Below the pieces are notes generated by a model that was not told where the DNA came from, did not search any database, and saw only the letters and a list, made by a program, of their open reading frames with translations. From IMG/VR virus record IMGVR_UViG_3300028607_003036, positions 4,039 to 68,038 of that record: a stretch of 64,000 bases of DNA, one strand, 5' to 3'. This stretch comes from a virus. Both the position numbers and the translations under genes were made by a program. Positions 23,455 to 41,702 of this stretch are shown in pieces. Numbering within the stretch: the stretch's first letter is position 1; each line of letters begins with the position of its first letter.

Positions 23455-25818
23455 CTAAAGAGTAATAGTTTGTTCGTTCTTAACATTATCATCAGCATCA
23501 TAAAATTTAAAAGTATAATCTCCTGGAGGAAGTGCATATCCAAACCAATTTTCATATACATCCTTACCGAACAATAAATTATATCTTGCTATTTGATTTT
23601 GCATGGAGAAAAATCCATTAAACGGTATGCCGTGTAATCCTGCTGCTCGTTGTCCTTCTGATTTATCTACTGGGGTAATGGAAACAGTAATAGCACGGAA
23701 TCCAGGTTTTAATTCAAAGAAAACGGCTTTAGGTGGTTTACCATCTAATATTTTCCACACCTCTGATTTGCTCATAGTATTAACACTTTCGGGCAAATCT
23801 GTTCCTTCAAATCCGTTAAAATCACTATTCGTTGACGAATAGGCGGTATATGTTCCTAGAGTAGTTACTGATTCTCCATCAGCAGCAGCTATTTGTCCTG
23901 AGCAGTTGACAAATTCTATTAGGGATGGGAATGCATTAACGGCAAAGTTACCTGCACTTCGTCCTGCGAAACTCCAGAATCCTTCTACATTACAATTTTC
24001 AAAAATATAATGAAATTGCATTGGAAGGGCACTAAACCCATGAACCACTGCTGTCTTGATGGTTGAATTTCTTACATATCCAACACAATTTCTACCCAAA
24101 TTAACAATTAAATGTTCTGTTAAGAACAAGCAGTTATCAACAACGTGTTCAAATCCACCCCAAGTTGTAATTCCTCCTCCAATTAGTACAAACTTACATC
24201 CTGTTATATGTACATCTCTTTGTAATGGACTTCTTCGGAAAACTGGAGGGAAAGTGGTGATAAATGCATGATTAGAATAAACCACTACACAATCTTCAAG
24301 AATTCCCCGTGCAGAAGTCCACAATCCATATGAAACATTTGGTTGATAGCGGTCTCGTGTTCCCATAACGACATGTCTTGTAATTTTAAGTTGTCTACTA
24401 AAATCGGTAGTTTCAGGACGATGTTGTAATGCTATTCCATTCTGGCATCCGTGAGATACATTATCTTCTGCTATAGCCGTATCCCATAACCAAAATCCTG
24501 CACTTGTTCCATCAATATAACTAATTAATCCTTTTACTGGAATATCTTCAAATCGTATACATTTAGAAGAAATATTTCTTTTATATATGTTGCGTTCTTC
24601 TGCACCATCTTCTTCAAAATATCCCATTCCTTTGGATAGATATCCAACATTATCGGTAATGATCATGTCATTACTACGATGAATAACAACAAATCTATTT
24701 CCTGGATCTTTACAATCTTGCCAAATAGAATTTCCTATGAATGAATCTTCGTGGAAAGCGGAGGCATGATGTCTATGGAGAGGGTATCTTCCTAGTTTTT
24801 TACGAGGTCCACAATTTCTAACTTCACAATAGTCAATATGTCCATGGGCACCCTTCATAAATATTGTATGTGCACGATGATTTGGATCACCTTCGACTGC
24901 TAGAGTGGATATAATTTTAATAGAACGAGTTAGATTAACAACAATAGGTGATACTATATGCTCTATTACATCATCATTGTTCATCCAAAACAGAGATGGT
25001 GCATCGAAAGTAACATTGTTGAATGTTATATTATTCCCATCTATAGAAAGCAATTTAGCGATAACTTCTGAACCATCTAATTTCAATAGTAAAAGGTTAT
25101 CACCAACCCACCAATTATTTGGAATATTACTTAATGTTGCTTGTCCATTTTGGATGGCAGATTGGGTGTGAGTACCAAGCGGAGATAAATCAAGTTTATC
25201 ACCTCGTTGGAAATTTTTAGATAACTGAAACTCTGTAACAAGGTTAAAATCTCCAGCCGATGTTACATAGTCCCAACTGGTTTTTTTAATTCCTTGTAGC
25301 TTTGTTGTACCCGCTGGCATGGTCCATAAGCCAATATCTTCTGGATGATAATCCGGCATCATAATATTTGGTCCGGGTTCAACATTACCAATAAATTTTG
25401 TATCGTCTGGAACAAAGAAGTGAATATTGGCGTTTACTTGTTGTCCTAATAAAGTAGACCTTACAACTATAGAACCATAAGTATTCCATACTGAATTATT
25501 CGTTAATACTGTAATTCCAGAATTAATGTGAGCTTCTTTAGATGTTAATGTATCTATATTTAAATTATGTTCTATAATTATATTAGTACTTGCGTGTGGA
25601 ACTGAGCCATTTTCCCATACTGTCGGATCAGATGCTAATCCCGATTTAACCGTTTTTATAAATTCTTTTGGTAAAACTGGACCTCCAGAAGGAGGTGGTG
25701 GTGGATCATTACCGCTTGGAGGAGTGTCGTCTATTGGTGCTATATTTATTTCTATATGAATAGTTTCTGGACCATCTACAACAAATTCTTGTTTCGGAAC
25801 AGTGATTTTATTAGACAT
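23455..25818 (-). CDS. G8/CEMIP-like parallel beta-helix protein
   Basis: VVNLTRSIKI, LGRYPLHRH, GNSIW...NRFVVIHRSN...DNVGY...YFEEDGAEERN. Confidence 0.8.
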   Translation of the reverse strand: MSNKITVPKQEFVVDGPETIHIEINIAPIDDTPPSGNDPPPPPSGGPVLPKEFIKTVKSGLASDPTVWENGSVPHASTNIIIEHNLNIDTLTSKEAHINSGITVLTNNSVWNTYGSIVVRSTLLGQQVNANIHFFVPDDTKFIGNVEPGPNIMMPDYHPEDIGLWTMPAGTTKLQGIKKTSWDYVTSAGDFNLVTEFQLSKNFQRGDKLDLSPLGTHTQSAIQNGQATLSNIPNNWWVGDNLLLLKLDGSEVIAKLLSIDGNNITFNNVTFDAPSLFWMNNDDVIEHIVSPIVVNLTRSIKIISTLAVEGDPNHRAHTIFMKGAHGHIDYCEVRNCGPRKKLGRYPLHRHHASAFHEDSFIGNSIWQDCKDPGNRFVVIHRSNDMIITDNVGYLSKGMGYFEEDGAEERNIYKRNISSKCIRFEDIPVKGLISYIDGTSAGFWLWDTAIAEDNVSHGCQNGIALQHRPETTDFSRQLKITRHVVMGTRDRYQPNVSYGLWTSARGILEDCVVVYSNHAFITTFPPVFRRSPLQRDVHITGCKFVLIGGGITTWGGFEHVVDNCLFLTEHLIVNLGRNCVGYVRNSTIKTAVVHGFSALPMQFHYIFENCNVEGFWSFAGRSAGNFAVNAFPSLIEFVNCSGQIAAADGESVTTLGTYTAYSSTNSDFNGFEGTDLPESVNTMSKSEVWKILDGKPPKAVFFELKPGFRAITVSITPVDKSEGQRAAGLHGIPFNGFFSMQNQIARYNLLFGKDVYENWFGYALPPGDYTFKFYDADDNVKNEQTITL
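24898..24966. repeat. 69-bp segment identical to the reverse complement of 41634-41702
   Basis: Base-by-base comparison; the flanking bases mismatch on both sides. Confidence 0.95.
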
Positions 25819-25871
25819 TTGAATTCTTTTTATTATTTTGTATTATGAATATCTTAAAAGGCCCATATCGT

Positions 25872-25881
25872 ATTATACACC
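25872..25881 (-). promoter_or_regulatory. GGTGTATAAT motif, putative phage promoter
   Basis: About 53 nt upstream of the G8 gene; also at 31132 and 32590. Confidence 0.55.
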
Positions 25882-26577
25882 ATAATATTTAGAAGAATGT
25901 TCTATAATTTCAACGTCTGCGACGTTTAACATGGGTCTGGATTGTGGTGATTGTGGCGAATAATCCTCTCCCTCTACAGATAGACAATAGATTCTTTTGA
26001 TTCTTGAATTAATTATAGCCTTACTACAATCCATACATGGAAGACAACAATAGCAAAATATATAGCAGTTTTGTGTAGATGTTTGAGAGTTGTAAATTGC
26101 GTTGCGTTCAGAATGCTCACACGTGCAAAGTTCTGTTCGTTCTCCGCTAGGTATATTTAGCAATCTCCTTGGACATTTATTTTTATAAAAATCAGTTTTA
26201 CATATTTTTTCTTTTAAAGTATCTTTTTCAGCTATTTGTCCAAATTCTATCTTTAATTTTTCACAATCTTTTGTGTTGAATAAATGGGAAGATATGCACC
26301 GTTTAATATCTAAAAATTCTTCAAAACTGAGTGGATGTAGACCCAAGATGAGAGACTTTTCTATTCTTGAAATGTTGTCCCATACTATATTTTTAATATG
26401 CCATTCACTATCACAATGAGGAACCCCTTTGGGTGGACTATTATAACCAGTTCCAACAATAGAATTTGTTTCAGGATTTACAATAACACTACCAATTTTT
26501 CTACTAAAGCATGGATTTTCACATTCTCCAACTACTTTAGCAATATTCATATATTTCCGTATAAATTTATCTTTCAT
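25873..26577 (-). CDS. dCMP deaminase with long insertion
   Basis: CFSRKIGSVIV, TGYNSPP, HSERNAI, LPCMDCSKAII. Confidence 0.92.
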   Translation of the reverse strand: MKDKFIRKYMNIAKVVGECENPCFSRKIGSVIVNPETNSIVGTGYNSPPKGVPHCDSEWHIKNIVWDNISRIEKSLILGLHPLSFEEFLDIKRCISSHLFNTKDCEKLKIEFGQIAEKDTLKEKICKTDFYKNKCPRRLLNIPSGERTELCTCEHSERNAIYNSQTSTQNCYIFCYCCLPCMDCSKAIINSRIKRIYCLSVEGEDYSPQSPQSRPMLNVADVEIIEHSSKYYGV

Positions 26578-27080
26578 TTAAACGGCTCCTCTAGTAATAG
26601 TCCTAGAAATCTTTTGATTTCCTGATATTTCTTTGTCTTCTTAGATAACTTAAACTTCTTTAAGCCTTTGCTGTCAACCCACTTATGAATATCATTACCA
26701 AATTCATTACTACGGGCATACCAATCACAAACAAGTTCTGCTATGTATACAGAGGGCATATTTGCAATGCCATTCCAATACTCCGGATGATGATAATTTG
26801 TATTGATATGTTGTTCTACTGCGGCTTTCCATTCAATGGGGTGTTCTTCATATGAACTTTGTCGTAAATATTTCCATTCACAACCAAAAAACTTGGAGTA
26901 ATCATGTATACGACCGTTAGCTATTAGTTGTATTCCTAGTTTTTCTTTTTTTTGAAGAATTAATCGTTGTCCTAATAATTCACATGATTCAGATACATTT
27001 TTTACATGTCTTAATAATGATTGTAAGTGTTGATCATTACCGTTGGGCATCTTTTCGCATCCTTTTAATGACACATGCAC
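26574..27080 (-). CDS. HD-like DUF5662-type protein
   Basis: HDYSKF, H...NYHHPEYW, ELVCDWYA. Confidence 0.8.
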   Translation of the reverse strand: MHVSLKGCEKMPNGNDQHLQSLLRHVKNVSESCELLGQRLILQKKEKLGIQLIANGRIHDYSKFFGCEWKYLRQSSYEEHPIEWKAAVEQHINTNYHHPEYWNGIANMPSVYIAELVCDWYARSNEFGNDIHKWVDSKGLKKFKLSKKTKKYQEIKRFLGLLLEEPFK

Positions 27081-27204
27081 AATATTTTATTTTTTCTATA
27101 ATTTCTAATCTAGTAGGTTTACTATATATTTGAAACCCTTTCCCGTTACATTTCCTGCATCCTGGCTTAGCATAGTACCGTGCTTTATTTTCATCAAATG
27201 CCAT
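27037..27204 (-). CDS. Small Cys-rich protein
   Basis: AAGGA SD and ATG at 27204; CRKCNGKG...CAC. Confidence 0.7.
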   Translation of the reverse strand: MAFDENKARYYAKPGCRKCNGKGFQIYSKPTRLEIIEKIKYCACVIKRMRKDAQR

Positions 27205-27225
27205 AATAATCCTTGTATACAGGAT

Positions 27226-27262
27226 AAAAAAGTTCCCCAACCTGTAATACAGGTTGAGGAAC
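27226..27262 (-). terminator. Rho-independent terminator
   Basis: GTTCCTCAACCTG-TATTA-CAGGTTGGGGAAC followed by T6. Confidence 0.85.
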
Positions 27263-27290
27263 TGTGAGCGGAAGTACTCCAAGACAGTCT

Positions 27291-27318
27291 ATTATAGTAG
27301 ATTTTTTAGTTTTGTCAA
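27291..27318 (-). promoter_or_regulatory. Sigma-70 promoter TTGACA-N16-TATAAT
   Basis: Minus strand reads TTGACA AAACTAAAAAATCTAC TATAAT. Confidence 0.85.
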
Positions 27319-27608
27319 TCTCTCCAAGGGTCTTTTTTCACATCTGGAACTACTGGAGTAACAGATATATTTCCTTCTTTTTCAACTATATGTACTTCAG
27401 GATCTCCAAGAAATTCAAATTTTCCATCTGCGACTGAACGTAGAATTCCCATATGGACGGGAATATCAAAAGTTTCTTCATCTTCATAATATGTCACAGT
27501 GTCTGTTATTGTAATTAGATCACCACGATGAAACTTGAAATCTAAAATATCTCCATCAACATCTTCTAATTCACAATTATACGGTAAAATAAATTGTACT
27601 CTAGCCAT
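27315..27608 (-). CDS. Hypothetical acidic protein
   Basis: 97-aa ORF. Confidence 0.75.
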   Translation of the reverse strand: MARVQFILPYNCELEDVDGDILDFKFHRGDLITITDTVTYYEDEETFDIPVHMGILRSVADGKFEFLGDPEVHIVEKEGNISVTPVVPDVKKDPWRD

Positions 27609-27620
27609 TATAGTTTCCTT

Positions 27621-28442
27621 TTAAAGGATAGTTTCACGAGCACGACGTTCATGAGTTTCTCCTGGAGATTCTGTGCTATGTCCACCCCCAACTAGAGGAG
27701 ATTCAACACCTTTGCCCACAGGAATTGTAACAGTGGTTATTGGACGCATACGATCTTCTGTAAAGAATGCAGTATAAGGATGTTCAATTTCTTCAATTTG
27801 AGGAATATGAATAGGATTATATGCATCAACTTCAGCTTGGGTTAATCGAAAATCAACTTTTGCAGCTACTTCTGCTTTAACCAAGAAAAGTTCTACAGCC
27901 ATTAAGCGATAGGCTTCTCTAGGAAGCAATTTCATTAAATCTGCTGAACTTTCTAAAAAGTCATTAGTCCAAGTATTAGCTTCGTCCATTTGAACCCACT
28001 GACCTAATGCATAAAGGTATAACTCTGTCCATCGACGAGTAAATCGATTTTGTTGATCAAAATATCTAATAGGATAGAGTTTAAATTTACGACGATTAGG
28101 TGTGATATGTGGAACATCTAGTCGTGGCTGTTGATAATTTTTAGTTCTAGCATCAATAAATGCTATTAATTGTACATAACAATTGTGATGTCGTTTAATC
28201 ATATCAATAGTTGGAGGACCAGGAGTAAAACAATCTCTTAGGTTGGACATACCTTGTACATAACGACAGGTCATTTCAAATAGTTCTGCCATACCAGCAT
28301 TTTCTGTTTCTGTATTGTCTCCTAAATTAGGTACAGCCCATCTTACACCTTCAAAATCGAAAGGTAAAATAGCATCATGTACGGGAACAATAGAGGTAAC
28401 ATCTACTTCAAGATTACTACTATATTCGGTGTCTTCAAGCAT
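27621..28442 (-). CDS. Hypothetical protein
   Basis: 273-aa ORF coupled to the protease gene. Confidence 0.8.
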   Translation of the reverse strand: MLEDTEYSSNLEVDVTSIVPVHDAILPFDFEGVRWAVPNLGDNTETENAGMAELFEMTCRYVQGMSNLRDCFTPGPPTIDMIKRHHNCYVQLIAFIDARTKNYQQPRLDVPHITPNRRKFKLYPIRYFDQQNRFTRRWTELYLYALGQWVQMDEANTWTNDFLESSADLMKLLPREAYRLMAVELFLVKAEVAAKVDFRLTQAEVDAYNPIHIPQIEEIEHPYTAFFTEDRMRPITTVTIPVGKGVESPLVGGGHSTESPGETHERRARETIL

Positions 28443-30270
28443 CTTTTTTTCTCCCTCTAAATGGTGCTTCTAAAAAGTTTTTTAGTAACGAAGGTAATGT
28501 GTTTAAATTAATTTCTAATGGATGTTGACGAGCAATTTCATCTATTGCATTTAATATATCATGTTTTTGATATTTGTGCAAAGGGTGATTAGGTGGTACT
28601 GGGCCATATCCAGTTGGAAGTTTCGGAACATTTACTGTTTTATAAGTATTTGGTCTAACCATTGGTGGTGGCACTTTAGCGTCAGTAGCCCCTGTTTCAA
28701 CAACTGATTGTGTTTTTTCACCTAATACTTGATCAACATATCTAACAATCTTTGGCCAAAGAATTCTATCAATAATTATATCGTCTATTGGACCAGGAAT
28801 ATTGTCTGTTATTCTATCTACTATCTTTCCTAGACCTTTTTTGCTTTTGTTCCATAACATCAGTAAAACTCCCCCTAAAATTCCAAATCCTAAAAAGATC
28901 GCACGTTCTAACAATACACCATTTCCGTTAGTAATTGTATCAAGTGGATGAATTAACTTTTCCTTTAATCTAGATATTATAGATATTTTACCTTTTATAT
29001 TTTCATTTATCAAACCTAGTTTTCCTAGTAGCCCTTTATTATTTTCGTCTAAATGTTCATTTCTTTCAGCCAATGCTTTGTTTTCAACCGATTTATCGGT
29101 TAGATATTGTGCTAGACCTCCGTTAGCATTTTTTTCTATATCAAGTAATTCTTTTAATGAGACTATATCTTCTATTAGTTTATTTTTTTCAATAATAGAA
29201 ACGTCAAGATCATTCTTAATATGATTATATTCTTCAGTAAGTTCTTTTATTTTAGCTTCCAGCTCAGTTATTTTATCATTAGGTACTGGTTCAGTAGGAT
29301 CTTCTCCCCCAGGAGGAGTAGGCCATGGAGCAGGATTTTGTTCACCACCATTATCGGGTGGCTTTTGCCTACCTCCACCACCAAACCACTCAAATGGATT
29401 ACAACTTCCTCCAGGACAAGGACCGGCATGAGGACAGTAATATTGCCCGTTTTTTTTGGTGTGCTGTCTAAATGAATGCCCACATGTTCCACAATTAGGT
29501 AGTTTCGTTGGTTTATTAGCACGTGTAGATGGTAATGGTTTTATAACTCTTTGATAATAGCTGGGTAAGTTTATATTACTTATTACTTGTCCCAGTCTAA
29601 TCTTATGAATTAATTTGTTAGATAAGCCAGCCCCCCTATCTTGCGTACTCCATGCTAAAAGTATAGCTACTCTTGTTTGCATTTCTCCATTTTTATCAGG
29701 TATATCTACAACAATACCCGTTCCAGATTCCCCTCCTATAGTTTTTGGGAAAAATTCAGTAGCTCCACTACTTTCATAAGCTGTAGTAATATGTCCTGTC
29801 CAACCCCTTGCCCAACCACCATTTGCACATCCAACAGCCCTAATTATTTGTCCATTTTTTAACTCATAATCGGCAGGGGCTAATGGAATTACACGAGGAT
29901 GATTTATATTATTGAATATAGATTGAGGAATCCAAAGTAAAGCAATATCTATTGATGTATTCCCATTAAATCTTCTCCAAATTACTTTAGCTGAAATGGG
30001 GTTAGAAATACGTCCATTACGGAAAAATTCTATAGATACTGTATTATCATTTCCGACTACATGATAATTTGTCTGACAGAAAAATCCAGGAGGATAATTC
30101 ACGCCTTTATAGGTAAAGGGCAGCGTTTTTTTGATTACTGTAGCAGTTCCACGCCCATTTGATGAAGAAACTCTTGCTGTTGCCTCAGATATTTGTTCTA
30201 AAGTTAATGATTTACCATAACCTATTGCTGGCATTAACAATATTATGAGGGATATAGTTATGTTTCTCAT
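28435..30270 (-). CDS. Exported trypsin-like serine protease with Cys/Pro linker, coiled coil and TM helix
   Basis: Signal peptide; TNYHVV, DIALL, GESG catalytic triad; TM AIFLGFGILGGVLLMLW. Confidence 0.8.
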   Translation of the reverse strand: MRNITISLIILLMPAIGYGKSLTLEQISEATARVSSSNGRGTATVIKKTLPFTYKGVNYPPGFFCQTNYHVVGNDNTVSIEFFRNGRISNPISAKVIWRRFNGNTSIDIALLWIPQSIFNNINHPRVIPLAPADYELKNGQIIRAVGCANGGWARGWTGHITTAYESSGATEFFPKTIGGESGTGIVVDIPDKNGEMQTRVAILLAWSTQDRGAGLSNKLIHKIRLGQVISNINLPSYYQRVIKPLPSTRANKPTKLPNCGTCGHSFRQHTKKNGQYYCPHAGPCPGGSCNPFEWFGGGGRQKPPDNGGEQNPAPWPTPPGGEDPTEPVPNDKITELEAKIKELTEEYNHIKNDLDVSIIEKNKLIEDIVSLKELLDIEKNANGGLAQYLTDKSVENKALAERNEHLDENNKGLLGKLGLINENIKGKISIISRLKEKLIHPLDTITNGNGVLLERAIFLGFGILGGVLLMLWNKSKKGLGKIVDRITDNIPGPIDDIIIDRILWPKIVRYVDQVLGEKTQSVVETGATDAKVPPPMVRPNTYKTVNVPKLPTGYGPVPPNHPLHKYQKHDILNAIDEIARQHPLEINLNTLPSLLKNFLEAPFRGRKKDA

Positions 30271-30271
30271 T

Positions 30272-31030
30272 TTATATCTCTTTATTTATATCTGATTTGA
30301 AGCTATTGCCAAAATATTCCTCCATGCGTTGTTCTCCTAAAAATAGGCCTATATCATAAAGAAGTGCACTTTTGCCCATATATGGGATGGGCATTCCATT
30401 CCATGTTACTATTTGGACATTAATTCCTATTAGTTCATAATCTTTATTAAACAGAGGTCCACCAGAATTTCCATAAAAAATATGAGTATCGTGTTGCAGA
30501 TAAATACTTTTATTTGGCAATCTGGTTATATGACCAACACCAATTCTTAGATCTCCTAGTGGATATCCTATCGAATAAACCTTATCGAATAGGGCTATTT
30601 GATTAGTAAAATATGACTTAGCAACTGGAAACAAGTTTTTTCCCGTTTGTATCTTAAAAATTGCTATATCTAATTCAACGTCCGAAACTACTAAATGTCC
30701 CACCGTTGTTATTCGTTTGATTGGATGACCAAGTTCATCATAATTATACCATCTGCAAGGTAGTATCTTTTTGGTTCTAGATCTCAGTTGATAACCTGTG
30801 TAAACATGATTTGCCGTTATAGCATATGCAAAATTTTTTGTTCTTTTTGTTCCATCACGAATGATAATTTCCTCATTCCATGACTTGATAACTATACCCG
30901 AACCACCCATAAACTGAACTGTAGGATAAAGCATATCCTGATGTTTATGATGGGTGTTTGGATCAATTGCGTAAATAGGCGTACAAAATAAAGCTATTAA
31001 AGTCAATAGTAGTAAAGTCTTATGTCGCAT
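30272..31030 (-). CDS. Exported trypsin-like serine protease
   Basis: Signal peptide; TANHV, DIAIF, GNSGGPL. Confidence 0.92.
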   Translation of the reverse strand: MRHKTLLLLTLIALFCTPIYAIDPNTHHKHQDMLYPTVQFMGGSGIVIKSWNEEIIIRDGTKRTKNFAYAITANHVYTGYQLRSRTKKILPCRWYNYDELGHPIKRITTVGHLVVSDVELDIAIFKIQTGKNLFPVAKSYFTNQIALFDKVYSIGYPLGDLRIGVGHITRLPNKSIYLQHDTHIFYGNSGGPLFNKDYELIGINVQIVTWNGMPIPYMGKSALLYDIGLFLGEQRMEEYFGNSFKSDINKEI

Positions 31031-31048
31031 TATGTTCTCAGTTAAAAG

Positions 31049-31122
31049 TGGCAGATGCAGGAATCGAACCTACTTCAACTCTAGCTTATGAAGCCTGAGA
31101 GATAACCAACCTTCCACCTGCG
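31049..31122 (-). tRNA. tRNA with CAT anticodon (Met, initiator-like), CCA not encoded
   Basis: CGCAGGT/ATCTGCC acceptor stem with a 1:72 mismatch, TTCATAA loop, GTAGG-TTCGATT-CCTGC T arm. Confidence 0.85.
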
Positions 31123-31131
31123 ATACTCTAT

Positions 31132-31141
31132 ATTATACACC
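31132..31141 (-). promoter_or_regulatory. GGTGTATAAT motif upstream of the tRNA
   Basis: TATAAT ends 9 nt before the tRNA 5' end; no TTGACA at -35. Confidence 0.6.
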
Positions 31142-31192
31142 GAAATTAGTACTCATAATGAAAATATCTAGCATATTAGAATTGGATTTTCT

Positions 31193-31834
31193 TCATCCAT
31201 CTTTTAAAATTGTAAAAAGATAATTGGTTAATGGGGAACGGGATATATCTGCGGGAGACGTTCTTTTATCTGGAGCAAAATGAACCAAATCTGTAAAATT
31301 ATCTCTAACACAGTAAGAAATAGCACTTGAACATATAGGGTATACTTTCCTATTTTCCTCAAAGTCCCAAGGCATAAAAAATCTTAAAATTGGAATGTGA
31401 CGTGCCCAAATTTCACAAATCCTTTTGTAACCATAATTTATACCACTAAGATTTCTCAAACAATTAGATACTAATCTACCATCGTATTCTAGTTTTATCT
31501 TTTCTATTTGTAAAATGTAGTTTTCATCTATCTTTGATTTATATTTATAAACAGGTGAACTTATTCTATAAACGTCTATACCATTAGTATTAGAATTAAC
31601 TGCATTTTTTAGTACTATTGTCCTACCACCGTACCATTCACGAATTTCTGTTAACTCTAATATATCTTCTCCATTATAACTCCAAGTCGCCATGCCAATA
31701 TGAGAATATTTTCCATTTGTAAGCGTTTGAATAATAAATGCAATAATTCCTTTATTTCTAAATAAAAGAATATCACCCTCTTTAATTAATTTTTTTTCTA
31801 AAATTTTAGAAAATGGTATATAAATGTATTTCAT
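31193..31834 (-). CDS. Permuted papain-like amidase (YiiX/YaeF, C92, NlpC/P60 superfamily)
   Basis: GDILLFR, YSHIGM, YGY, ICSSAISY. Confidence 0.85.
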   Translation of the reverse strand: MKYIYIPFSKILEKKLIKEGDILLFRNKGIIAFIIQTLTNGKYSHIGMATWSYNGEDILELTEIREWYGGRTIVLKNAVNSNTNGIDVYRISSPVYKYKSKIDENYILQIEKIKLEYDGRLVSNCLRNLSGINYGYKRICEIWARHIPILRFFMPWDFEENRKVYPICSSAISYCVRDNFTDLVHFAPDKRTSPADISRSPLTNYLFTILKDG

Positions 31835-31876
31835 TAGTTGTTTTGTGCTATGAGTTTACAAAGACTCAGTGGCCAT

Positions 31877-31906
31877 AAAAAAATACTCCCCATAAAAATG
31901 GGGAGT
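31877..31906 (-). terminator. Rho-independent terminator
   Basis: ACTCCCCA-TTTTTA-TGGGGAGT then A and T7, just after the 31917 stop. Confidence 0.85.
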
Positions 31907-31916
31907 TTTAAAAAGA

Positions 31917-32528: not shown

Positions 32529-32577
32529 GCATATGTGTTATTTTTATCTCCTTGTTAAGTTCCTTTACTTAAAATCC

Positions 32578-33785: not shown

Positions 33786-34669
33786 GAATTTTCCTTTATT
33801 AGTTGTTCGAAGTAAGAGGAATCTTTCGCATCTGCAAGATTTAGAGTGTAGTCTTTTATTTCTGGTTCTTCTAGTTTATTCTGAAACTCAGTTCTTTCTC
33901 TTTTACTTAAATTTGTACTTTCACTACTCTTTATTTCACACAATGAAGCCAACAACTTTCTCTCTTCCCTACTATAAGATACACCGTAAAGAACATAGTC
34001 TTCAAACGCTTCCCAAGCAAGAGGACAAATTTCTTTAACCATTACTGCTATTTTTTCAGCATATTGTCTAATTTCCCATTGTGCATGTTTGTCTAATCGT
34101 AACATCAAAAAGTTAAATAAGCTGCGAAGATTAATTTGCCAATAAAAGTAGGTATAAGTAGTTAATGGAAGATCCATTCTTGCTAATTCTCGTGTTACAC
34201 CCTTGTCTAACATACATTTGTATAAATCTGTCGTATCTTGTCGTTGCATTTCTAAATTTGTAATAATATTTCGATATTCATCATCATCTAATTTTTCTAC
34301 ATCCTGTCCCTGCTTATTAGATTTCGACTGTTTCTTTAGGTTTTCCTGTTTAGGAGTATAATATAGTTGTGGCATGATAGAATATCTACCACTGTATTCG
34401 TTCACCGAACTTATTCTATGACGGATTAATTGTCGCATTACAAGAATTGGACATGCAATGTGAAATTTAAACATCGGCATTTCTAGTGGAGAACCGTGGT
34501 TGTGTCGTATTAAATATCTAATTAATCCACGATCATCGCTTCTCTTTTTGGTTCCGGCCCCGTATGATACTCTTGCCGCTTGTACTATAGAATCATCGCC
34601 ACCCATATAATCTTTGAGAGCTATAAATCCATGATCTAATACTGGAAAGTATTTATCAAGTATATCCAT
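33782..34669 (-). CDS. thyX: FAD-dependent thymidylate synthase
   Basis: HGSPLE, RQLIRHRISSVNEYSGRY, RELARMDLP, HAQWEIR; AGGAG SD before 34669. Confidence 0.97.
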   Translation of the reverse strand: MDILDKYFPVLDHGFIALKDYMGGDDSIVQAARVSYGAGTKKRSDDRGLIRYLIRHNHGSPLEMPMFKFHIACPILVMRQLIRHRISSVNEYSGRYSIMPQLYYTPKQENLKKQSKSNKQGQDVEKLDDDEYRNIITNLEMQRQDTTDLYKCMLDKGVTRELARMDLPLTTYTYFYWQINLRSLFNFLMLRLDKHAQWEIRQYAEKIAVMVKEICPLAWEAFEDYVLYGVSYSREERKLLASLCEIKSSESTNLSKRERTEFQNKLEEPEIKDYTLNLADAKDSSYFEQLIKENS

Positions 34670-34670
34670 T

Positions 34671-34904
34671 TTACTCCTTTTGATATATATGTTCTGTTTT
34701 AAAATGAATACATCCAAAATTCTCCCCTGTTATAAAACTAGCATCATAACATTCATTATCACAATAAAGAAGACTGTCTTTTGGTTGATCATCAATTAAG
34801 CAAAACATGAAGTTGTTGTCATATATAAATTTTTTATTACTACATATTCCAAAACAAGATTCATCCTGTCTTTCCCAAAACTTACAAATGTTACATTTGT
34901 TCAT
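34671..34904 (-). CDS. Cys-rich hypothetical protein, paralog of 37359-37772
   Basis: CxxCKFW...FGICSNKK...YCDNE...TGENFGCIHF. Confidence 0.75.
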   Translation of the reverse strand: MNKCNICKFWERQDESCFGICSNKKFIYDNNFMFCLIDDQPKDSLLYCDNECYDASFITGENFGCIHFKTEHIYQKE

Positions 34905-35320
34905 AATATTTGACCCACTTCATTAATAATTTCTAATTCATACTTATCAAATTTTTCATCTTCTAATATCTCGGTAAATGATATCCACTTGAATGGTTCT
35001 TGTGGTTTGGCATCTACTAAAATTATAGTTCCGTACACTATATTAATCTCTTTTTCTAAACTTTCTGAACAGTCCAGTCCAGTTATCATTCTATCTTTTA
35101 CTTTTTTAAGTGGAATTTGACTTTTACCCAACCATTTTGTTTTAAAATTAAAAATATTAAAAATTAGTTCATTAACTAAATCCTCTATAGATATTTTATA
35201 ATCACGCAGATTAGCAAATGGGAGTTTATTTATTTCACTATTTATTAAATACATCGGTTCATTAGGATGACCCATATCTATTTTAGCTAATAGCAACACT
35301 AGATGAGCATCAATCTGCAT
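34901..35320 (-). CDS. Hypothetical protein
   Basis: 139-aa ORF. Confidence 0.65.
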   Translation of the reverse strand: MQIDAHLVLLLAKIDMGHPNEPMYLINSEINKLPFANLRDYKISIEDLVNELIFNIFNFKTKWLGKSQIPLKKVKDRMITGLDCSESLEKEINIVYGTIILVDAKPQEPFKWISFTEILEDEKFDKYELEIINEVGQIL

Positions 35321-35927
35321 TTTTCTTTAGCCTTTCTACTATCCGATTATACATTTGATGAGCATTTTGTCTAGTCTTATTTTGTATTTTCCCTATTTCT
35401 TTAAAAGTTTTACCTTCTACACGATATTTTATACAGAGTTTTTGACTATCTGTTAGTTTACTTTTATCTATCATAATTTCATTTAATTCATTTTCTTCTT
35501 GAATAATTAGATTTTCAAGTGGTTCTAATTCTCCGCTAGCTACCGTATCATATAGTCTAAAATTGTCTTTCATAGCAAAGTCTAGGCTTTTATTTTTTTT
35601 ATTTTTTAACTTATAAGCACTAGTAAAATAACTCTTAATAGAAAGTTGAGCACAATACATACGATAACTACTTTTATTCCTATGTTTTCCTGGACGATCC
35701 GGCGACCATCTCCAATCAGCCATCATAATATCATGGGCTACTTTTGATATAGCGTCTTCACTTTTTAACATTTTAGAAATTAAATCATATTTATTATTTT
35801 GAACACCATAATACTTGATATTTTTTTCTGCTAATTCTAAATACTCTGATAAATCAAGAAACTTGATATCTTTAGGATCTTGATACTTAATTCGTTGACT
35901 ATTAATATTTTGAATGTCGTAGTGCAT
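35310..35927 (-). CDS. Sigma-70-family RNA polymerase sigma factor
   Basis: Region-2-like EDAIS...ADWRWSPDR...SSYRMY; region-4 HTH LTDSQK...GKTFKEIGKIQNKTRQNAHQ. Confidence 0.75.
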   Translation of the reverse strand: MHYDIQNINSQRIKYQDPKDIKFLDLSEYLELAEKNIKYYGVQNNKYDLISKMLKSEDAISKVAHDIMMADWRWSPDRPGKHRNKSSYRMYCAQLSIKSYFTSAYKLKNKKNKSLDFAMKDNFRLYDTVASGELEPLENLIIQEENELNEIMIDKSKLTDSQKLCIKYRVEGKTFKEIGKIQNKTRQNAHQMYNRIVERLKKNAD

Positions 35928-35936
35928 TTTTACTCC

Positions 35937-37028
35937 TTATGATATGGCTTCTATGAGTTTCTCCGCCGTATTTTTCCATGAAAACTCCTTTGCCGTTTGA
36001 ATGCTACCAGTGTTGGAGATTAGCTCATCTTTATTATTATATGCATATCTCATATGAAAAATCAACTGTTCTTTTTGCGAATCATCAAATTTAGCCCAGT
36101 TTCCCACGTCACCATGAAACCACACCCCATCAAAAGCTGGTTCCATTTCATCTATTTGAATTAAAAGAGCGTTTCCTTCATTTACAAACTCCGTATGTCC
36201 TGAGAAATCAGTAGCAATTACATGCTTTCCACACGACATCATTTCAAGTAGTTCAAGATTCCACGCCTCAGCCTTAGCAGGAAATACTCCGCAGTCAGAT
36301 TCTTTCATTACTGCCGCAACTTCTTGCTGCGTCTGTACATATGGCAACAACTTGATTTTATCGGCAAGCTTAGAATTTTCTACCATTATTTTCCACTCTG
36401 GTAGTTGCTCCTGAATTTTAGGATGAGGACTTTCCCACATCATCCAGAGCTCAACATTATCAGTGGTTTCAAATGTATCGTTAAAACATTCTATGATTAT
36501 ATCCGACGATTTCCTTAACTCGATTTTCCCAACATTTAAAAACACATATGGCTTATCATTTTGTTTTTTGTTTATTGGAATGATATTTTTGTGTTCATTG
36601 AATATAGTTCGATCAACTCCCAATGGAACAACATGAATTTCATCGGGGGCTAAGCTTGTTTCTCTTTGCACTATCCATTTTGCCCATCCAGATGATACTA
36701 TAATTTCGTCACAGGATTCCATATGATTTTTTTCATTGGGACGAAATTTATCCAACTCAAAAAATGTAAAACCATATCTTTTTCCTCTTCCTACGTGTTG
36801 AGCTAGGTCAAATTGGTGCCATAACCTTATAGACGGTGCATTTGCATCAAATGTTTCTTGGTTCTTAATTAATTTTTGTAATAATTCGTGATGACAATTA
36901 TCAGCATCAATGCCAGCTATAGGCCACCAAGAAACTTTGTGTCCTAATTTATCTAGAGACAGAAGAATATTTAAGCCTGAAACACCGAATCCTGTTCGAT
37001 TACATGGTCCTGTGAAGTTTATATTCAT
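35937..37028 (-). CDS. Glycosyltransferase family 4
   Basis: NRTGFG, LNVGKIELRK, EAWNLELLEMMSCGK..IATDFSGHTE. Confidence 0.9.
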   Translation of the reverse strand: MNINFTGPCNRTGFGVSGLNILLSLDKLGHKVSWWPIAGIDADNCHHELLQKLIKNQETFDANAPSIRLWHQFDLAQHVGRGKRYGFTFFELDKFRPNEKNHMESCDEIIVSSGWAKWIVQRETSLAPDEIHVVPLGVDRTIFNEHKNIIPINKKQNDKPYVFLNVGKIELRKSSDIIIECFNDTFETTDNVELWMMWESPHPKIQEQLPEWKIMVENSKLADKIKLLPYVQTQQEVAAVMKESDCGVFPAKAEAWNLELLEMMSCGKHVIATDFSGHTEFVNEGNALLIQIDEMEPAFDGVWFHGDVGNWAKFDDSQKEQLIFHMRYAYNNKDELISNTGSIQTAKEFSWKNTAEKLIEAIS

Positions 37029-37126
37029 TATAAATTTTCCATTTTCTTTCTAATCTCGTTAATTTGTAGTTACTTTGTCTCTGAAATATTTTGTTCCACA
37101 CTAAATCTGTCTTTAAGCATTATATT

Positions 37127-37336
37127 CTACCCTTCCCCTCCGCAACACGCAGCCGTGCATAAGTCGGGGTTTTCCAATGGATCACAGCAGACCTGCTGCT
37201 TTTGAAGTTCGATTAGTCGGTCAAGGCGAACAACAACCAAAGAAGTTGAATATGCGATACCAATTAGTGCACCAAGAACAACACCCAAAATTATAAGAAT
37301 ATAGAAAAAAAGTAAAATATTACTGAAAAGTTTCAT
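37127..37336 (-). CDS. Small membrane protein
   Basis: Hydrophobic N-terminus and a Cys-rich tail. Confidence 0.65.
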   Translation of the reverse strand: MKLFSNILLFFYILIILGVVLGALIGIAYSTSLVVVRLDRLIELQKQQVCCDPLENPDLCTAACCGGEG

Positions 37337-37358
37337 CTACTCACCTCATTTTTTGATG

Positions 37359-37772
37359 TTATATTTTTTTATCAGTTTTAATTAAAACCGTCCCGTACCA
37401 TAGTTCCATTTGCTTCTCAAAATGTACACATCCAAATTCTTCGCCTGTATAATGGTATGCTCCATAAGCTTCGTTATCTGAATAAATTAACATATCAGTA
37501 GTAACAAGCTCAGATAAATCATCATCTTCTATATGTCCACCCGCACTAGTATAATGTATCTTTTCATTGCTACATTCACCAAAACTTGTAGGAATTTTTT
37601 CTGATTTTATTAATTTGGCTGATCCATTACGAGGTTTAGAAGTTCTATCATAATCTTTATATTTATGTATAGTTGTTTTATCTTTCCAACCCAAAATTTC
37701 TACTGTATTAAGAAATATCTTATTTCTTTTCCAGAATTTACAGTTCTTACACACCTCTTTCATGATGGTCAA
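37359..37772 (-). CDS. Cys-rich hypothetical protein, paralog of 34671-34904
   Basis: CxxCKFW...FGECSNEK...YSDNE...TGEEFGCVHF. Confidence 0.75.
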   Translation of the reverse strand: MTIMKEVCKNCKFWKRNKIFLNTVEILGWKDKTTIHKYKDYDRTSKPRNGSAKLIKSEKIPTSFGECSNEKIHYTSAGGHIEDDDLSELVTTDMLIYSDNEAYGAYHYTGEEFGCVHFEKQMELWYGTVLIKTDKKI

Positions 37773-37793
37773 TCGCTTTCCAGACTTTCGTCT

Positions 37794-38378
37794 TCAAGTG
37801 AATAAATAATCTATTGGTATTCTTAAATCTAGAGTATCAGCTAAAAATTTATAATCCCAGTGTGATAGTTCAACTTCTTTATTAAAAATTGAGAGTAGTA
37901 TTAAATCTATCCGTTTATAAAATACATAAGTATATCTTTTATCAAAGAACTCTAAATCTTTTTTGGGTATTGCCATATAGAATAAATCATGCCACGTTTT
38001 TTCTGATTCATTTACTTTTCCATCACCAAAACTACCACGAGTATTAATTTGCCATTCGTCATTCCAGTAATATAATAGAATTAGAGATTCGTCGTGCTTT
38101 TCTTGGCATTCAAATGCCAACCAATTAAACTTTTTAAAATGTTGGCGAACCTCTCCCACATTGAAAAATCGTGAAAATGCACGTGCTACTAGATCTCCAG
38201 TCTGTTTATTTAATACAAGCCCTCTACATTCTTTTACTATTGGACTTAGCTTCGGAGAATCTTTAGTATAGTTTAAGATGACCCTGTCATCAGTTGGATG
38301 GTAGCACGCACGAAGCGTGTATTTGTCTATGATCTTTTCAAGAGGAGCTTTTTTTAACATTCTTTGTATTTTTAACAT
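37794..38378 (-). pseudogene. Truncated or degenerate T4 Rnl1-like RNA ligase
   Basis: ECRGLVL, RAFSRFFN, TRGSF are present; motif I reads EKHDES; motif III Glu and motifs IV/V are absent; 194 aa. Confidence 0.65.
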
Positions 38379-39040
38379 TTTGGAAATAAATCCTCCATTA
38401 AACTTTTGTTTCTAGGATGTTTTCCTATTTTAAACCAACTACCTATATACTCTGAATACTTCGGAGGTACAGCCTCCGCAATAGAATGTTTGTTCTTAGT
38501 CCAGTGGATTTCCATAGCATCTTGCCACACAGATAGTTTATTAGAGCCGTTTCCACCATGACCGGCACATGTTATGTAATATTTTTCTTTAACTGTACCT
38601 GCATGTTTTATATGTTTAGGTTGTGGAACTTTAAATCCTTCAATTTCAAAGTGTCTATGTCTGATTACTCTGATTTTAAACATTTCTCCACACAACATCA
38701 AGTCTCGGCGGATTGGTGCTCGTGGTACATTCTCTATAACCCATGGTTTTCTAGACTTCAATAATAGTTGTCGTGTAGGATCTACAAGATCAGGATAAAC
38801 TTTACCACACCTAATATGTTTTATTGAACCAAAACTATAAAGTTGACATGGTGGTGATGCCCAAATAAAATCGAATTTCTGAAGAAATTCTGTAGTTAAT
38901 TCTAATACATCCCCCTTGATGAAGTTAAACGGATAATCTGGTTGATCTTCTTTATCTATTCCGGTAATATCAGTTAGGCCAGCGTTTTTTAATCCTGTTG
39001 CCGCACCACCGGCACCACAATATAGGTCTAATATTTTCAT
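38372..39040 (-). CDS. C5 cytosine DNA methyltransferase (short phage type)
   Basis: LDLYCGAGG, ASPPCQ, IENV, terminal EAVPP. Confidence 0.9.
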   Translation of the reverse strand: MKILDLYCGAGGAATGLKNAGLTDITGIDKEDQPDYPFNFIKGDVLELTTEFLQKFDFIWASPPCQLYSFGSIKHIRCGKVYPDLVDPTRQLLLKSRKPWVIENVPRAPIRRDLMLCGEMFKIRVIRHRHFEIEGFKVPQPKHIKHAGTVKEKYYITCAGHGGNGSNKLSVWQDAMEIHWTKNKHSIAEAVPPKYSEYIGSWFKIGKHPRNKSLMEDLFPKC

Positions 39041-39053
39041 AATATTTTTTAAT

Positions 39054-39179
39054 CTATTTTTTATTTAATAATTTTGAAAATCTATTAGATAAACTAGATT
39101 TATATTGTCTTCTCCAACATCTACTAGCTTTACGTCGTGTTTTTTTAGCACTTATCTTATATTGATGTTTTTTACTCAT
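39054..39179 (-). CDS. 41-aa highly basic peptide
   Basis: MSKKHQYKISAKKTRRKASRCWRRQYKSSLSNRFSKLLNKK; the start overlaps the upstream gene end. Confidence 0.5.
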   Translation of the reverse strand: MSKKHQYKISAKKTRRKASRCWRRQYKSSLSNRFSKLLNKK

Positions 39180-39591
39180 TCCAGGGAACCTTTCCAATTA
39201 GTTTTTTATAGTGGTCACTCCATCTTAATTTTCCAAGTTCTATCATAAGGCGAAATTTGGGTATTGCGAACGACATCCAAGTTACTGCCCAAACAGTTCC
39301 TAATTCTATTGGCTTAATACCAAAATTAACTAAAGAAATATATGACGCTAATGTATATATTATAAATCTAGTTGGTGCTACTCCAAATGTTACAATATAT
39401 AGTGTGATTTGATCTTTGTCACATCCATACCAAAATCCTAACATCCAAGTTAAATTAGCAAAAAATGTTGCGGCCCCCATTATTAATAAAGATGTTTCAC
39501 CCAGTGAAACTACTATAATTATCCAAATAAAAACTATAAAAGTTAATTCAATTATACATTTACGAAGTATTATATTTTTATTAATATTCAA
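39172..39591 (-). CDS. Multi-pass membrane protein
   Basis: About four hydrophobic segments. Confidence 0.7.
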   Translation of the reverse strand: MNINKNIILRKCIIELTFIVFIWIIIVVSLGETSLLIMGAATFFANLTWMLGFWYGCDKDQITLYIVTFGVAPTRFIIYTLASYISLVNFGIKPIELGTVWAVTWMSFAIPKFRLMIELGKLRWSDHYKKLIGKVPWNE

Positions 39592-39872
39592 TTTTTCAAT
39601 TTCCTAATACTAACTACTGCATCGGTGCAAAAGATTCCTAATCTTGTCATATGCCTCATTATTTGGATAGGATATCCCACCGTTATATATCCTACTTTAA
39701 CTATTTTTTCTTCAATCAGTGCTCCATTAATAGTTACTGTTTCATTTATTAGTACTGATATTGTGCCCGTTTTACTTTTGTTTCCTATTGTAGTTATTAT
39801 AAATTCAGTTGTTTTCGTCTTTACTTTTAATTTAAGGGGTCTTTTGTGTTCCGCTAGATTTATTTCTTTCAT
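39588..39872 (-). CDS. Hypothetical protein
   Basis: 94-aa coupled ORF. Confidence 0.6.
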   Translation of the reverse strand: MKEINLAEHKRPLKLKVKTKTTEFIITTIGNKSKTGTISVLINETVTINGALIEEKIVKVGYITVGYPIQIMRHMTRLGIFCTDAVVSIRKLKN

Positions 39873-40059
39873 TTTGTAACCATTTCCAGTCTACTCTTTT
39901 TATAGAATTTAATAGAAAATATTTTATAATATGTAAAGGATATGCATTTTGCAATGAATTTGCTACTTGTTCTATATCTGATTTTAACTTTATGGGGCTT
40001 ACATCACAATGTTCGAGATAAGTTTTGATTAGACTGGTTTCTAAATTTGGTTCTTTCAA
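39832..40059 (-). CDS. Hypothetical protein
   Basis: 75-aa ORF. Confidence 0.55.
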   Translation of the reverse strand: MKEPNLETSLIKTYLEHCDVSPIKLKSDIEQVANSLQNAYPLHIIKYFLLNSIKRVDWKWLQNERNKSSGTQKTP

Positions 40060-40082
40060 TTCGTTTCACTCACTTTCAATAT

Positions 40083-40110
40083 AAAAAGAGGAGGAGAATC
40101 CTTTCCCCTC
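40083..40110 (-). terminator. Probable Rho-independent terminator
   Basis: GAGGGGA-AAGGAT-TCTCCTC then CTC and T5, after the 40124 stop. Confidence 0.6.
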
Positions 40111-40123
40111 CCGTATTTCTAAG

Positions 40124-40333
40124 TTACACTGGTTGCAACTTATTTTGCTTAGCCGCACACTTTAGGGCACGGGTTAGATTACGCTTATTAACTCGTGAAA
40201 ATACACGACGACTTCCGTCACGTACCATTTGGACTCGTTCCACACTAAAATCACCATTAACATCCTGGGTAACAGTGACATTAAATTCCTTCTTACTAGT
40301 GCTGGAACTACAACGTGGTTGACTATTAGACAT
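40124..40333 (-). CDS. Small basic protein in a stand-alone unit
   Basis: AGGAG SD, long upstream spacer, downstream terminator. Confidence 0.8.
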   Translation of the reverse strand: MSNSQPRCSSSTSKKEFNVTVTQDVNGDFSVERVQMVRDGSRRVFSRVNKRNLTRALKCAAKQNKLQPV

Positions 40334-40512
40334 AATAAAAATCTCCTAAAAAGTTATCCTAGTAAATACGACTCACTCAAGTCAGATTGTGTTATGCTTC
40401 AACATTTTCTCCTTTGTTTTCGAACGTTTGGGGAATTGTACTGGTCCGCTTAGTTGTCCTATATTTGCGACAATATTCAATATAATCTTTTAGACTACCT
40501 AATAAGTTTCGT

Positions 40513-41409
40513 CTATTCATAGATAAACTCCAGTGTTCTTTCTAATCCGAGCCCCTTAAAATTAGTATCAGAAAAATGTCGTATAGTAATCATAGAGGGA
40601 TTAATAAAGTGTTTTGTAAATTTACGTCTTTGCATCTTAATATTTAATGAAATATGTTCGCTTTGAGGGTCATTAGGACCACCCCACCCCTCATATCTAC
40701 CAATTAAATGAGCAATCTTATAAATTCCAATGCCCCCAAAGCAAGAGCGGACTGGAATTGGTGATTTACCCCTTTGTAATTCCGAGACCAAATCCCCTTT
40801 CTTATCTAGAAAGTGATAAAATTTTCTTCTCTCATTATTAGGCATAATCACAGGAAAACAGTCATAAAAAACTGGTTTATCATTTACAAATTGTAATCCG
40901 TTAGATCCAATCATTGAGAAATCTGGTATAGCAAAACTATTAGCAACACCATCAATACTCCAACCGCCATGAAGATCAGGATCAACCACCACCATATAAT
41001 CAAAATTACTGTATTGACTATAGACTTTATCAAGGTATTTATTTCTATACTTCGCCATAAGTTGAACACGTTGTAAATCCTCACCCCTAATATTAGGATT
41101 ATTTAGATCTTCCATTTCTAAATCTAAATTTGGATCTTGCTTTTCCCAACTACTTAAAAACTGTTTTGTATCATCAGTTGAATCACTTTCGTAGATTATA
41201 ATTTTGTAATTTTTAAAGTACGATGCAAGCTTTTCAATACGTGCTTTAGAATAAGGAAATATCTCTGCAATATTTCTAATGCAACAACATATTACGGCAG
41301 ACGATGATTTCATACAGCTATAACCATTTTGTACATCTGCATAGTAAGATTCGTTGCTACCATCAACTGGAAACTTTAATTCTGGAAAAAAAGATAAATC
41401 TCTACTCAT
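40513..41409 (-). CDS. GT-A glycosyltransferase (CAP59/GT69-like)
   Basis: IYESDSTDDT, MAKYRNKYL, VVDPDL, PVRSCFGGIGIY. Confidence 0.8.
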   Translation of the reverse strand: MSRDLSFFPELKFPVDGSNESYYADVQNGYSCMKSSSAVICCCIRNIAEIFPYSKARIEKLASYFKNYKIIIYESDSTDDTKQFLSSWEKQDPNLDLEMEDLNNPNIRGEDLQRVQLMAKYRNKYLDKVYSQYSNFDYMVVVDPDLHGGWSIDGVANSFAIPDFSMIGSNGLQFVNDKPVFYDCFPVIMPNNERRKFYHFLDKKGDLVSELQRGKSPIPVRSCFGGIGIYKIAHLIGRYEGWGGPNDPQSEHISLNIKMQRRKFTKHFINPSMITIRHFSDTNFKGLGLERTLEFIYE

Positions 41410-41606
41410 TTTTTAGTACCCATAAGTGTATTGAAAAAGGATCTCTGTGATTTACCATCCATATCATATACTAGAGCCTGGAAAAATGCAAACATACATG
41501 ACTCACACATATCTACAACGTCTGGTACATTTTGAAAAGACATTTGTCTAGTTGAGGTAGAATAAACCTTATTCTTTATACATATATCACATACTGTTAT
41601 TTTCAT
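41406..41606 (-). CDS. Small Cys-containing hypothetical protein
   Basis: Start at 41606 after AGGAG; CDIC...CESC. Confidence 0.65.
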   Translation of the reverse strand: MKITVCDICIKNKVYSTSTRQMSFQNVPDVVDMCESCMFAFFQALVYDMDGKSQRSFFNTLMGTKK

Positions 41607-41633
41607 TTTTCCTTTTCTCCTACTACTATGTTC

Positions 41634-41702
41634 ATAGAGCATATAGTATCACCTATTGTTGTTAATCTAACTCGTTCTATTAAAATTATATCCACTCTAG
41701 CA
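41634..41702. repeat. Intergenic 69-bp inverted copy of a G8 gene segment
   Basis: Exact reverse complement of 24898-24966. Confidence 0.95.

Follow-up and report, generated by a model that had tools for sequence, protein, structure and literature searches.

Why would a virus carry, in the gap between two genes, an exact inverted copy of 69 bp from within one of its own coding sequences? The question is raised by a 64,000-nucleotide stretch of DNA (here, the window) that comprises bases 4039 to 68038 of the 77,532-bp virus contig IMGVR_UViG_3300028607_003036 from IMG/VR. One copy, R1 (24898 to 24966, minus strand), the source, is formed by codons 285 to 307 (IEHIVSPIVVNLTRSIKIISTLA) of a gene encoding a 787-amino-acid (aa) beta-helix protein, referred to here as G8. 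The other, R2 (41634 to 41702, plus strand), the derived copy, is located 16,667 bp away, in inverted orientation, next to a NeuA-like cytidylyltransferase gene (neuA). With somewhat better than an even chance, in our judgment, R2 represents a recent ectopic inverted capture of a fragment of the genome's own gene and is probably a neutral scar; most likely, it has no selected function.

The original prediction described a perfect 69-bp inverted duplication, 16.7 kb apart, of exactly 23 codons, with the copy lying between genes behind neuA, and every part of this description was confirmed. In a repeat search and by string comparison, 24898 to 24966 and 41634 to 41702 proved reverse-complementary at 69 of 69 positions, and BLAST reported the pair with an E value of 1e-31 to 3e-32. 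R1 corresponds precisely to codons 285 to 307 of the open reading frame (ORF) at 23455 to 25818 (minus strand), while R2 follows the stop of neuA (41710) by 7 nucleotides (nt) and precedes the ATG of a 66-aa ORF (41606) by 27 nt. Further copies, for which a self-BLAST had been suggested, did not turn up: the 69-mer occurs only twice in the contig, and a word-11 self-comparison of all 77,532 bp revealed no repeat longer than 26 nt beyond R1/R2, making this pair the sole long repeat. The 69-mer itself has no meaningful terminal repeats, its ends sharing just a 5-nt TAGAG/CTCTA match. Since the plus strand at R2 holds the G8-sense sequence, the minus strand, on which the genes are located, is antisense to the G8 mRNA at this site.

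The nature of R2 as an insertion became apparent from its flanks, which have a counterpart elsewhere in the window. The sequence abutting R2 (41704 to 41735) shows a direct 32-nt match (91%) to 28429 to 28460, and the window contains the 22-nt core of this junction exactly two times, where 0.01 occurrences would be expected even with three mismatches allowed. With R2 in place, the match covers 29 of 32 positions and stops at 32 nt; in silico deletion of R2 extends it, the joined flanks giving 46 nt of which 41 are identical to 28460 to 28415. Because its deletion joins the flanks into a 46-nt twin of 28415 to 28460, R2 is to be regarded as an insertion. The uninterrupted twin, J1 (28415 to 28460, minus strand), serves as the empty-site comparator; here, the stop of a 611-aa gene overlaps the start of a 273-aa gene (MLEDTEYSS), with GAT GCT TGA read over ATG CTT GAA. 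At the interrupted junction, the upstream half, J2a (41703 to 41735, minus strand), holds the last codons and the stop of neuA, with ATT where the twin has ATG, and the downstream half, J2b (41621 to 41633, minus strand), is where the match resumes once R2 is removed. Relative to J1, no target bases were lost or duplicated at R2, the lone oddity being a T at 41703, where the twin has a C. Neither was there a sign of microhomology beyond chance between donor and target, since the best ungapped matches (6 of 15 and 7 of 15, at offsets of +/-4 nt) equal the mode of random window pairs.

In the frame of the twin's downstream gene, J2 reads I-LEDTEHSSRRKGK and continues in frame into MKITV..., the beginning of the 66-aa ORF. 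This ORF (41406 to 41606, minus strand), with a CxxC...CxxC pattern, is the downstream neighbor of R2 and overlaps a CAP59-like glycosyltransferase gene by ATGA; the upstream neighbor, neuA, extends from 41710 to 42411 (minus strand; Pfam CTP_transf_3, PF02348). Judging from the twin, the ancestral start of the 66-aa ORF was probably located in J2, where it overlapped the neuA stop (ATG, now ATT at 41717 to 41715). The insertion puts a TAG into the old leader frame, and an internal AGGAG...ATG remains. A 42-aa ORF reported by gene finders (41603 to 41731, minus strand), which begins inside neuA, reads through R2, and ends in an ATGA overlap with the 66-aa ORF, is probably spurious. Because R1 and R2 are identical at 69 of 69 positions while the twins share 89%, either R2 was inserted after the junction had been duplicated or conversion has kept it identical to R1. 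Neither flanking gene of J1 tells which of J1 and J2 is the older twin: the N termini of the 273-aa family are hypervariable, and the C terminus of the 611-aa protein has diverged too far from that of its homologues. The 273-aa protein (27621 to 28442) itself has relatives on many metagenome contigs (42 to 76% identity), a family with a conserved HDAILP...GVxWA...NLGDNxETEN core besides the variable N termini and no Pfam family.

A word search among 5.8 billion proteins for relatives of neuA returned only itself; since neuA has no other homologue, there was no relative in which to inspect the R2 junction. Queries of a viral contig collection with the 42-nt repeat core, G8, neuA, and the CAP59-like transferase returned nothing usable, a scan of metagenome contigs for the 42-nt core gave no match (near-identical records were possibly not covered), and no DNA match was found in a phage collection.

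For G8, relatives were available, and these bear on the direction of copying. The 787-aa protein (23455 to 25818, minus strand) is of the CEMIP type, with a match to Pfam PF24606 over residues 316 to 419 (E value, 1.9e-18); the Pfam G8 domain (PF10162) is recorded for distant homologues only and not for the protein itself. Its homologues in metagenomes are 27 to 75% identical, and an alignment of 10 of them (28 to 75% identity) placed the 23 residues encoded by R1 within a conserved block, xNLxRxIxIxS, in which L296 and R298 are invariant and S304 is nearly so. The closest of these relatives, P0002 (75% identity), carries MEHVVFPIVANLTRSIQIVSVLA at the R1 position; its gene is carried by a syntenic contig of 16 kb (ENA ERZ23486238). 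Conservation of these residues throughout the family, down to 28% identity, identifies G8 as the donor and R2 as the derived copy; in other words, the 69-mer is native to the G8 gene. The same conservation led us to rule out the reverse scenario, in which G8 would have received the 69-mer as an in-frame insertion. Neither the role of G8 as donor nor the clean insertion with an uninterrupted twin had been recognized in the original prediction, and both point to an insertion scar.

The window being a metagenome contig, and the repeat being longer than the small k values that cause tangles in assembly graphs, R2 might also have been absent from the phage genome altogether and have arisen as an assembly or library chimera. 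Contigs from Logan (k = 31) in three runs, X1, X3, and X5, representing three studies (2018, 2021, and 2023), spoke clearly against this. They match the window with 0 mismatches and, at the junctions reached, end exactly 30 nt inside the repeat, as is to be expected of a true repeat because a k = 31 graph must break 30 nt inside a 69-bp repeat. X1 and X3 together cover all four junctions, X5 covers three of them, and in X3 the 69-mer stands alone as a unitig whose depth is raised (89.6). Moreover, contigs assembled separately by the Joint Genome Institute (JGI) span R1 completely in samples 3300023192, 3300023215, 3300028892, and 3300023216 and R2 in samples 3300023192, 3300028612, and 3300023216 (contigs L003, L004, and L006), amounting to seven complete spans from five samples. 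Recurrence of the junctions, the check by which a chimera was to be exposed, was thus observed for all four, without mismatch and in independent contigs, which excludes an artifact for practical purposes and makes a chimera exceedingly improbable.

The sampled sequences are 99.98 to 100% identical to the window and therefore represent one near-clonal lineage, repeatedly sampled. In a further run, X9, a 617-nt contig crosses R1 unbroken at a depth of ~3.5x, but the R2 region is barely assembled there, making this run uninformative on the existence of a strain lacking R2.

How, then, might the scar have come about? We envisage a break in the junction that separates neuA from the small ORF, on the margin of the glycan-synthesis island, at which a short double-stranded fragment of phage DNA, 69 bp of the beta-helix gene, would have been captured in inverted orientation, a step that we infer, and joined without a need for microhomology; a replication template switch could alternatively have produced the same outcome. 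The event would be recent relative to the divergence of the junction twins (100% versus 89% identity). The 66-aa ORF would now use its internal Shine-Dalgarno sequence and ATG, and R2 could have risen to fixation in the lineage because it does little harm. The contig encodes cutting and recombination functions, in the form of two Endonuclease-VII-fold genes and a RecA-like gene, that fit an origin by capture. A scar, rather than a designed element, is also supported by the lack of a distinctive fold, an Rfam family, a recombinase, or a reverse transcriptase in our searches and by the single orientation found in seven of seven spans.

Several observations sit less comfortably with a neutral scar. 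The near-clonal sampling provides no population evidence for neutrality. Recombination of the short-patch double illegitimate type (SPDIR), microhomology-mediated break-induced replication, and alternative end joining do not fit, because neither junction shows more microhomology than chance would give. Three in-register coincidences, each with a chance of 1 in 3, could hint at selection: the source begins at a codon boundary, it is a whole 23 codons long, and R2 entered the old leader between two of its codons; the landing of a perfect TATAAT 17 nt from a TTGAAG is a further coincidence. Finally, the depth of the 69-nt unitig in X3 (89.6) exceeds that of its flanks summed in pairs (~60 to 64), which may reflect a third copy in the part of the genome still unassembled (26% is in hand) or simply noise in the depth of so short a unitig.

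From the sequence, three side effects can be deduced that coincide with the consequences put forward in the original prediction. A minus-strand transcript across the junction would carry 69 nt perfectly complementary to the G8 mRNA, a sigma-70-like -10 element now lies 17 nt from a preexisting TTGAAG, and the repeat would offer a 69-bp substrate to the RecA-like protein, with rare inversions breaking G8. As deductions from the sequence, all three were correct; as functions, none was supported, and each was weighed against the scar in its own right.

In the case of the RNA, the proposal would be that either the mRNA of the glycan island or a short RNA from the new promoter pairs over 69 nt with the G8 mRNA and that host RNase III cuts the duplex, so that G8 expression would be lowered or delayed while the island is transcribed. 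The complementarity is indeed perfect, and the strand concerned is the one transcribed in this tightly packed operon of co-oriented genes. Folding of the R2 region yielded a minimum free energy of -19.4 kcal/mol, not better than that of shuffled sequences (-20.6 +/- 3.3 kcal/mol; z = 0.37), which leaves the site without competing local structure and presumably accessible, and identity at 69 of 69 positions at an unconstrained intergenic site fits maintenance, although a recent origin fits equally. The two RNAs could also differ in timing, as G8 seemingly has its own promoter class: the motif GGTGTATAAT occurs in three exact copies in the window, all on the gene strand (0.20 expected), at 25872 to 25881, 31132 to 31141, and 32590 to 32599 (all minus strand), preceding G8 (54 nt upstream of its start), the genes for tRNA-Met and a trypsin-like protease, and a 199-aa gene, respectively. 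Together with the sigma-70 region-4 protein (Sigma70_r4) assigned by Pfam to 35310 to 35927, this suggests a candidate phage-specific promoter class that would include a candidate G8 promoter. However, no terminator defines a small RNA at R2, the next terminator-like site being a hairpin at 40089 to 40112; an Rfam search of the whole window gave no match at the gathering score; neuA, having no other homologue, offers no relative for a test of conservation; and one event in one clonal lineage is just the picture expected of a neutral scar. With the complementarity upheld and the function left unsupported by either Rfam or folding, we regard antisense control as unlikely. Slightly less likely still is its most developed form, in which R2 would be a phage-made regulator, an inverted G8 microduplication in the leader of the last genes of the glycan island, through which transcription of the island would silence or delay the beta-helix enzyme, possibly a glycan-cleaving one, by means of a 69-bp RNA duplex. 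Equally unlikely as antisense control in general is that R2 was retained for the sigma-70 promoter it would complete, which would serve the small ORF, the CAP59-like glycosyltransferase gene, and a 69-aa ORF independently of the upstream island. The site itself, TTGAAG-N17-TATAAT (41685 to 41713, minus strand), was present as predicted, with a -35 element in J2a that overlaps the neuA stop and a perfect -10 element from R2, matching the consensus at 10 of 12 positions with a 17-nt spacing. It is also new, given that J1 has the TTGAAG without a -10 element at that spacing, and perfect -10 sites, at an estimated ~1 per 1.9 kb, have ~5% odds of falling within a 100-nt junction. The hairpin at 40089 to 40112 would close such a unit; on sequence grounds, it is probably the end of the transcription unit containing R2. 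Yet the number of promoter-like sites in this AT-rich region does not exceed chance (12, versus 15.0 +/- 3.7 in shuffled sequences), which lends no support to a promoter function, and host-type promoters may be of little importance here, in a phage that seemingly has its own sigma-like factor and a different repeated motif.

The remaining proposal, a phase switch, we consider very unlikely. Recombination between the arms would flip 24967 to 41633 and toggle G8 between the intact 787-aa form and a split form of 317 and 505 aa; both products do follow from the coordinates, and the ATG at 41628 on the plus strand, in frame with R2, was seen as described. Perfect arms of 69 bp exceed the need of homologous recombination, the phage encodes a RecA-like protein (16246 to 17289, minus strand; Pfam RecA, E value, 4.8e-16), and in X3 the flank depths are unbalanced at each copy (31.9/21.7 at R1 and 42.6/28 at R2), as would be compatible with mixed linkage but equally with co-occurring strains. 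While Logan contigs at k = 31 cannot link flanks across a 69-bp repeat, the seven JGI spans from five samples all join the parental flank pairs, with 0 recombinants, bearing in mind that contigs drop minor variants. No site-specific recombinase was found: the 77.5-kb contig has no match to PF00239 (resolvase) or PF00589 (integrase), and the precomputed Pfam matches for the genes between the arms include no recombinase. These genes cover housekeeping-type functions and tRNA-Met, and a flip would reverse ~25 co-oriented genes, including those for thymidylate synthase, ClpP, the tRNA, and the sigma-like factor, in an otherwise strictly one-stranded layout. It would furthermore break the conserved G8 gene, leave the 505-aa ORF without a ribosome-binding site, and, unlike real tail fiber switches, bring in no alternative C-terminal cassette. 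Of the functions found, only homologous recombination of the RecA type could act on the repeats, and inversions are accordingly expected as rare by-products and not as programmed events.

The source of the window is, by its Pfam matches, a large, uncultured marine tailed phage; the runs holding the locus, which include SRR15144439, SRR7467835, SRR7467836, SRR24309842, and SRR17063093, are marine metagenomes (seawater, sediment, and plankton), the contig was rated 26% complete by CheckV, the G+C content of the window is 32%, and practically all genes are encoded by the minus strand and overlap at their stops and starts. Besides the RecA-like protein, Pfam matches identified a split DnaE, DnaB, and a Toprim primase among the replication and recombination genes; a class I/II-type ribonucleotide reductase, a Thy1-type (ThyX) thymidylate synthase, a dCMP deaminase, and ClpP; and a long run of sugar-modifying enzymes, including the NeuA-like cytidylyltransferase, a GT29 sialyltransferase-like protein, and the CAP59-like transferase. 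DnaE is encoded in two halves with other genes between them, the N-terminal half at 7106 to 8926 (PHP and NTPase domains) and the C-terminal half at 3631 to 5268 (finger and HhH). Just upstream of the split gene lie the two Endonuclease-VII-fold genes (8865 to 9275 and 9885 to 10526), whose paralogy accounts for the direct repeats D1 and D2; the encoded proteins may be free-standing homing-type nucleases. In the glycan island, the genes for the NeuA-like cytidylyltransferase, the homologue of GT29 (eukaryote-type) sialyltransferases, and the CAP59-type transferase adjoin (40513 to 43027). Farther along, a basic 69-aa ORF (40124 to 40333), relatively rich in G+C, is followed by the hairpin at 40089 to 40112, the only strong terminator-like one of the region. 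At 40430 to 40472, other contigs of X1 and X3 share only ~43 nt with the window and diverge on both sides, and all Logan contigs break there; in X3, the depth of 40435 to 41663 is twice that of its left neighbor (42.6 versus 21.7). The pattern suggests recombination at the strain level, with a breakpoint here, on the border of the island. Contig joints at other positions, between 28.4, 31.8, 35.6, and 39.9 kb, were set aside; with sides of 20 to 24 nt and 85% likeness in A/T-rich ribosome-binding stretches, they were taken to reflect other organisms or low complexity. Several low-likeness joints in contigs of other organisms touch the area of a perfect 20-nt palindrome (31794 to 31813) within a 213-aa ORF (31193 to 31834).

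As a neutral scar, R2 would be a clean natural example of the uptake of short ectopic patches by phage genomes, with donor, recipient, and empty-site twin all within one contig and with microhomology-free junctions that known bacterial short-patch mechanisms explain poorly. The standing 69-bp inverted repeat, in the presence of a RecA-like recombinase, would also be a natural probe of the recombination load that is tolerated. Should the antisense or the promoter proposal be true after all, a regulatory link would here be caught being born, at zero divergence, and an antisense regulator would then be the bacterial-virus counterpart of the birth of microRNA genes by inverted duplication of their targets.

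Among known systems, diversity-generating retroelements work with pairs of template and variable repeats, and R2 likewise duplicates, in noncoding form, a stretch of a gene whose product putatively binds or cleaves carbohydrate. Unlike in such pairs, however, R1 and R2 are identical, adenines included, inverted, and 16.7 kb apart, and they stem from a conserved core block and not from a variable C terminus; with 69 of 69 positions identical and no match to a reverse transcriptase (RVT_1) in the 77.5-kb contig, a retroelement was rejected. A transposable element, such as a miniature inverted-repeat transposable element, was likewise discarded, given just two copies, one of them conserved coding sequence, and neither a target duplication nor terminal inverted repeats. 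Site-specific invertible segments, such as those served by Gin in Mu (the G segment), Cin in P1 (the C segment), and Hin in Salmonella, share with R1/R2 the inverted repeats that bound a segment, here as perfect 69-bp arms, and the position of one arm within the coding sequence of a beta-helix or fiber-like protein that inversion would change. In contrast to those segments, no invertase gene was found, the arms are 69 bp of coding sequence instead of short crossover sites, and the 16.7 kb between them comprise ~25 housekeeping-type genes without an alternative coding cassette, in the one orientation seen. Trans-acting antisense control is known from the c4 RNA of phages P1 and P7 (Rfam RF01695), and plant microRNA genes are born by inverted duplication of their targets. 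R2 would resemble both as an inverted piece of target coding sequence in a noncoding stretch, with perfect predicted complementarity in trans; unlike them, it has no RNA family match, defined RNA ends, or structure.

The junction twins, as opposed to the 69-mer, invite comparison with the promoter early stem-loops (PeSLs) of T4-type phages, boundary cassettes that combine a strong early promoter with a terminator stem-loop and are found many times over, at cassette borders (Arbiol et al. 2010, PMC2839356; PMC4122927). J1 and J2 are also short direct repeats at gene boundaries of a variable region and, like PeSLs, could allow the intervening 13.3 kb to be deleted or shuffled. Unlike PeSLs, they consist of a stop/start overlap with a ribosome-binding site, exist in two copies, and lack a stem-loop, with no terminator-like hairpin at J2. 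The 46-nt twins thus appear to resemble the T4-type cassettes in role but not in structure.

A close likeness to R2 as a scar is found in repair. Filler and templated insertions occur at repaired breaks, and 69 bp is said to be near the upper end of the sizes of SPDIR insertions. In Acinetobacter baylyi, SPDIR microindels have been described as the product of a short-patch mechanism with a microhomology rule (bioRxiv 10.1101/2023.11.22.568220). SPDIR-type insertions use microhomology at both junctions, whereas R2 shows none above chance and no target base was lost. The two agree in that a patch of tens of bases is drawn, in either orientation, from an unrelated site of the same genome, without target-site duplication and without the ends of a mobile element, and in R2 that patch corresponds exactly to codons 285 to 307 of G8.

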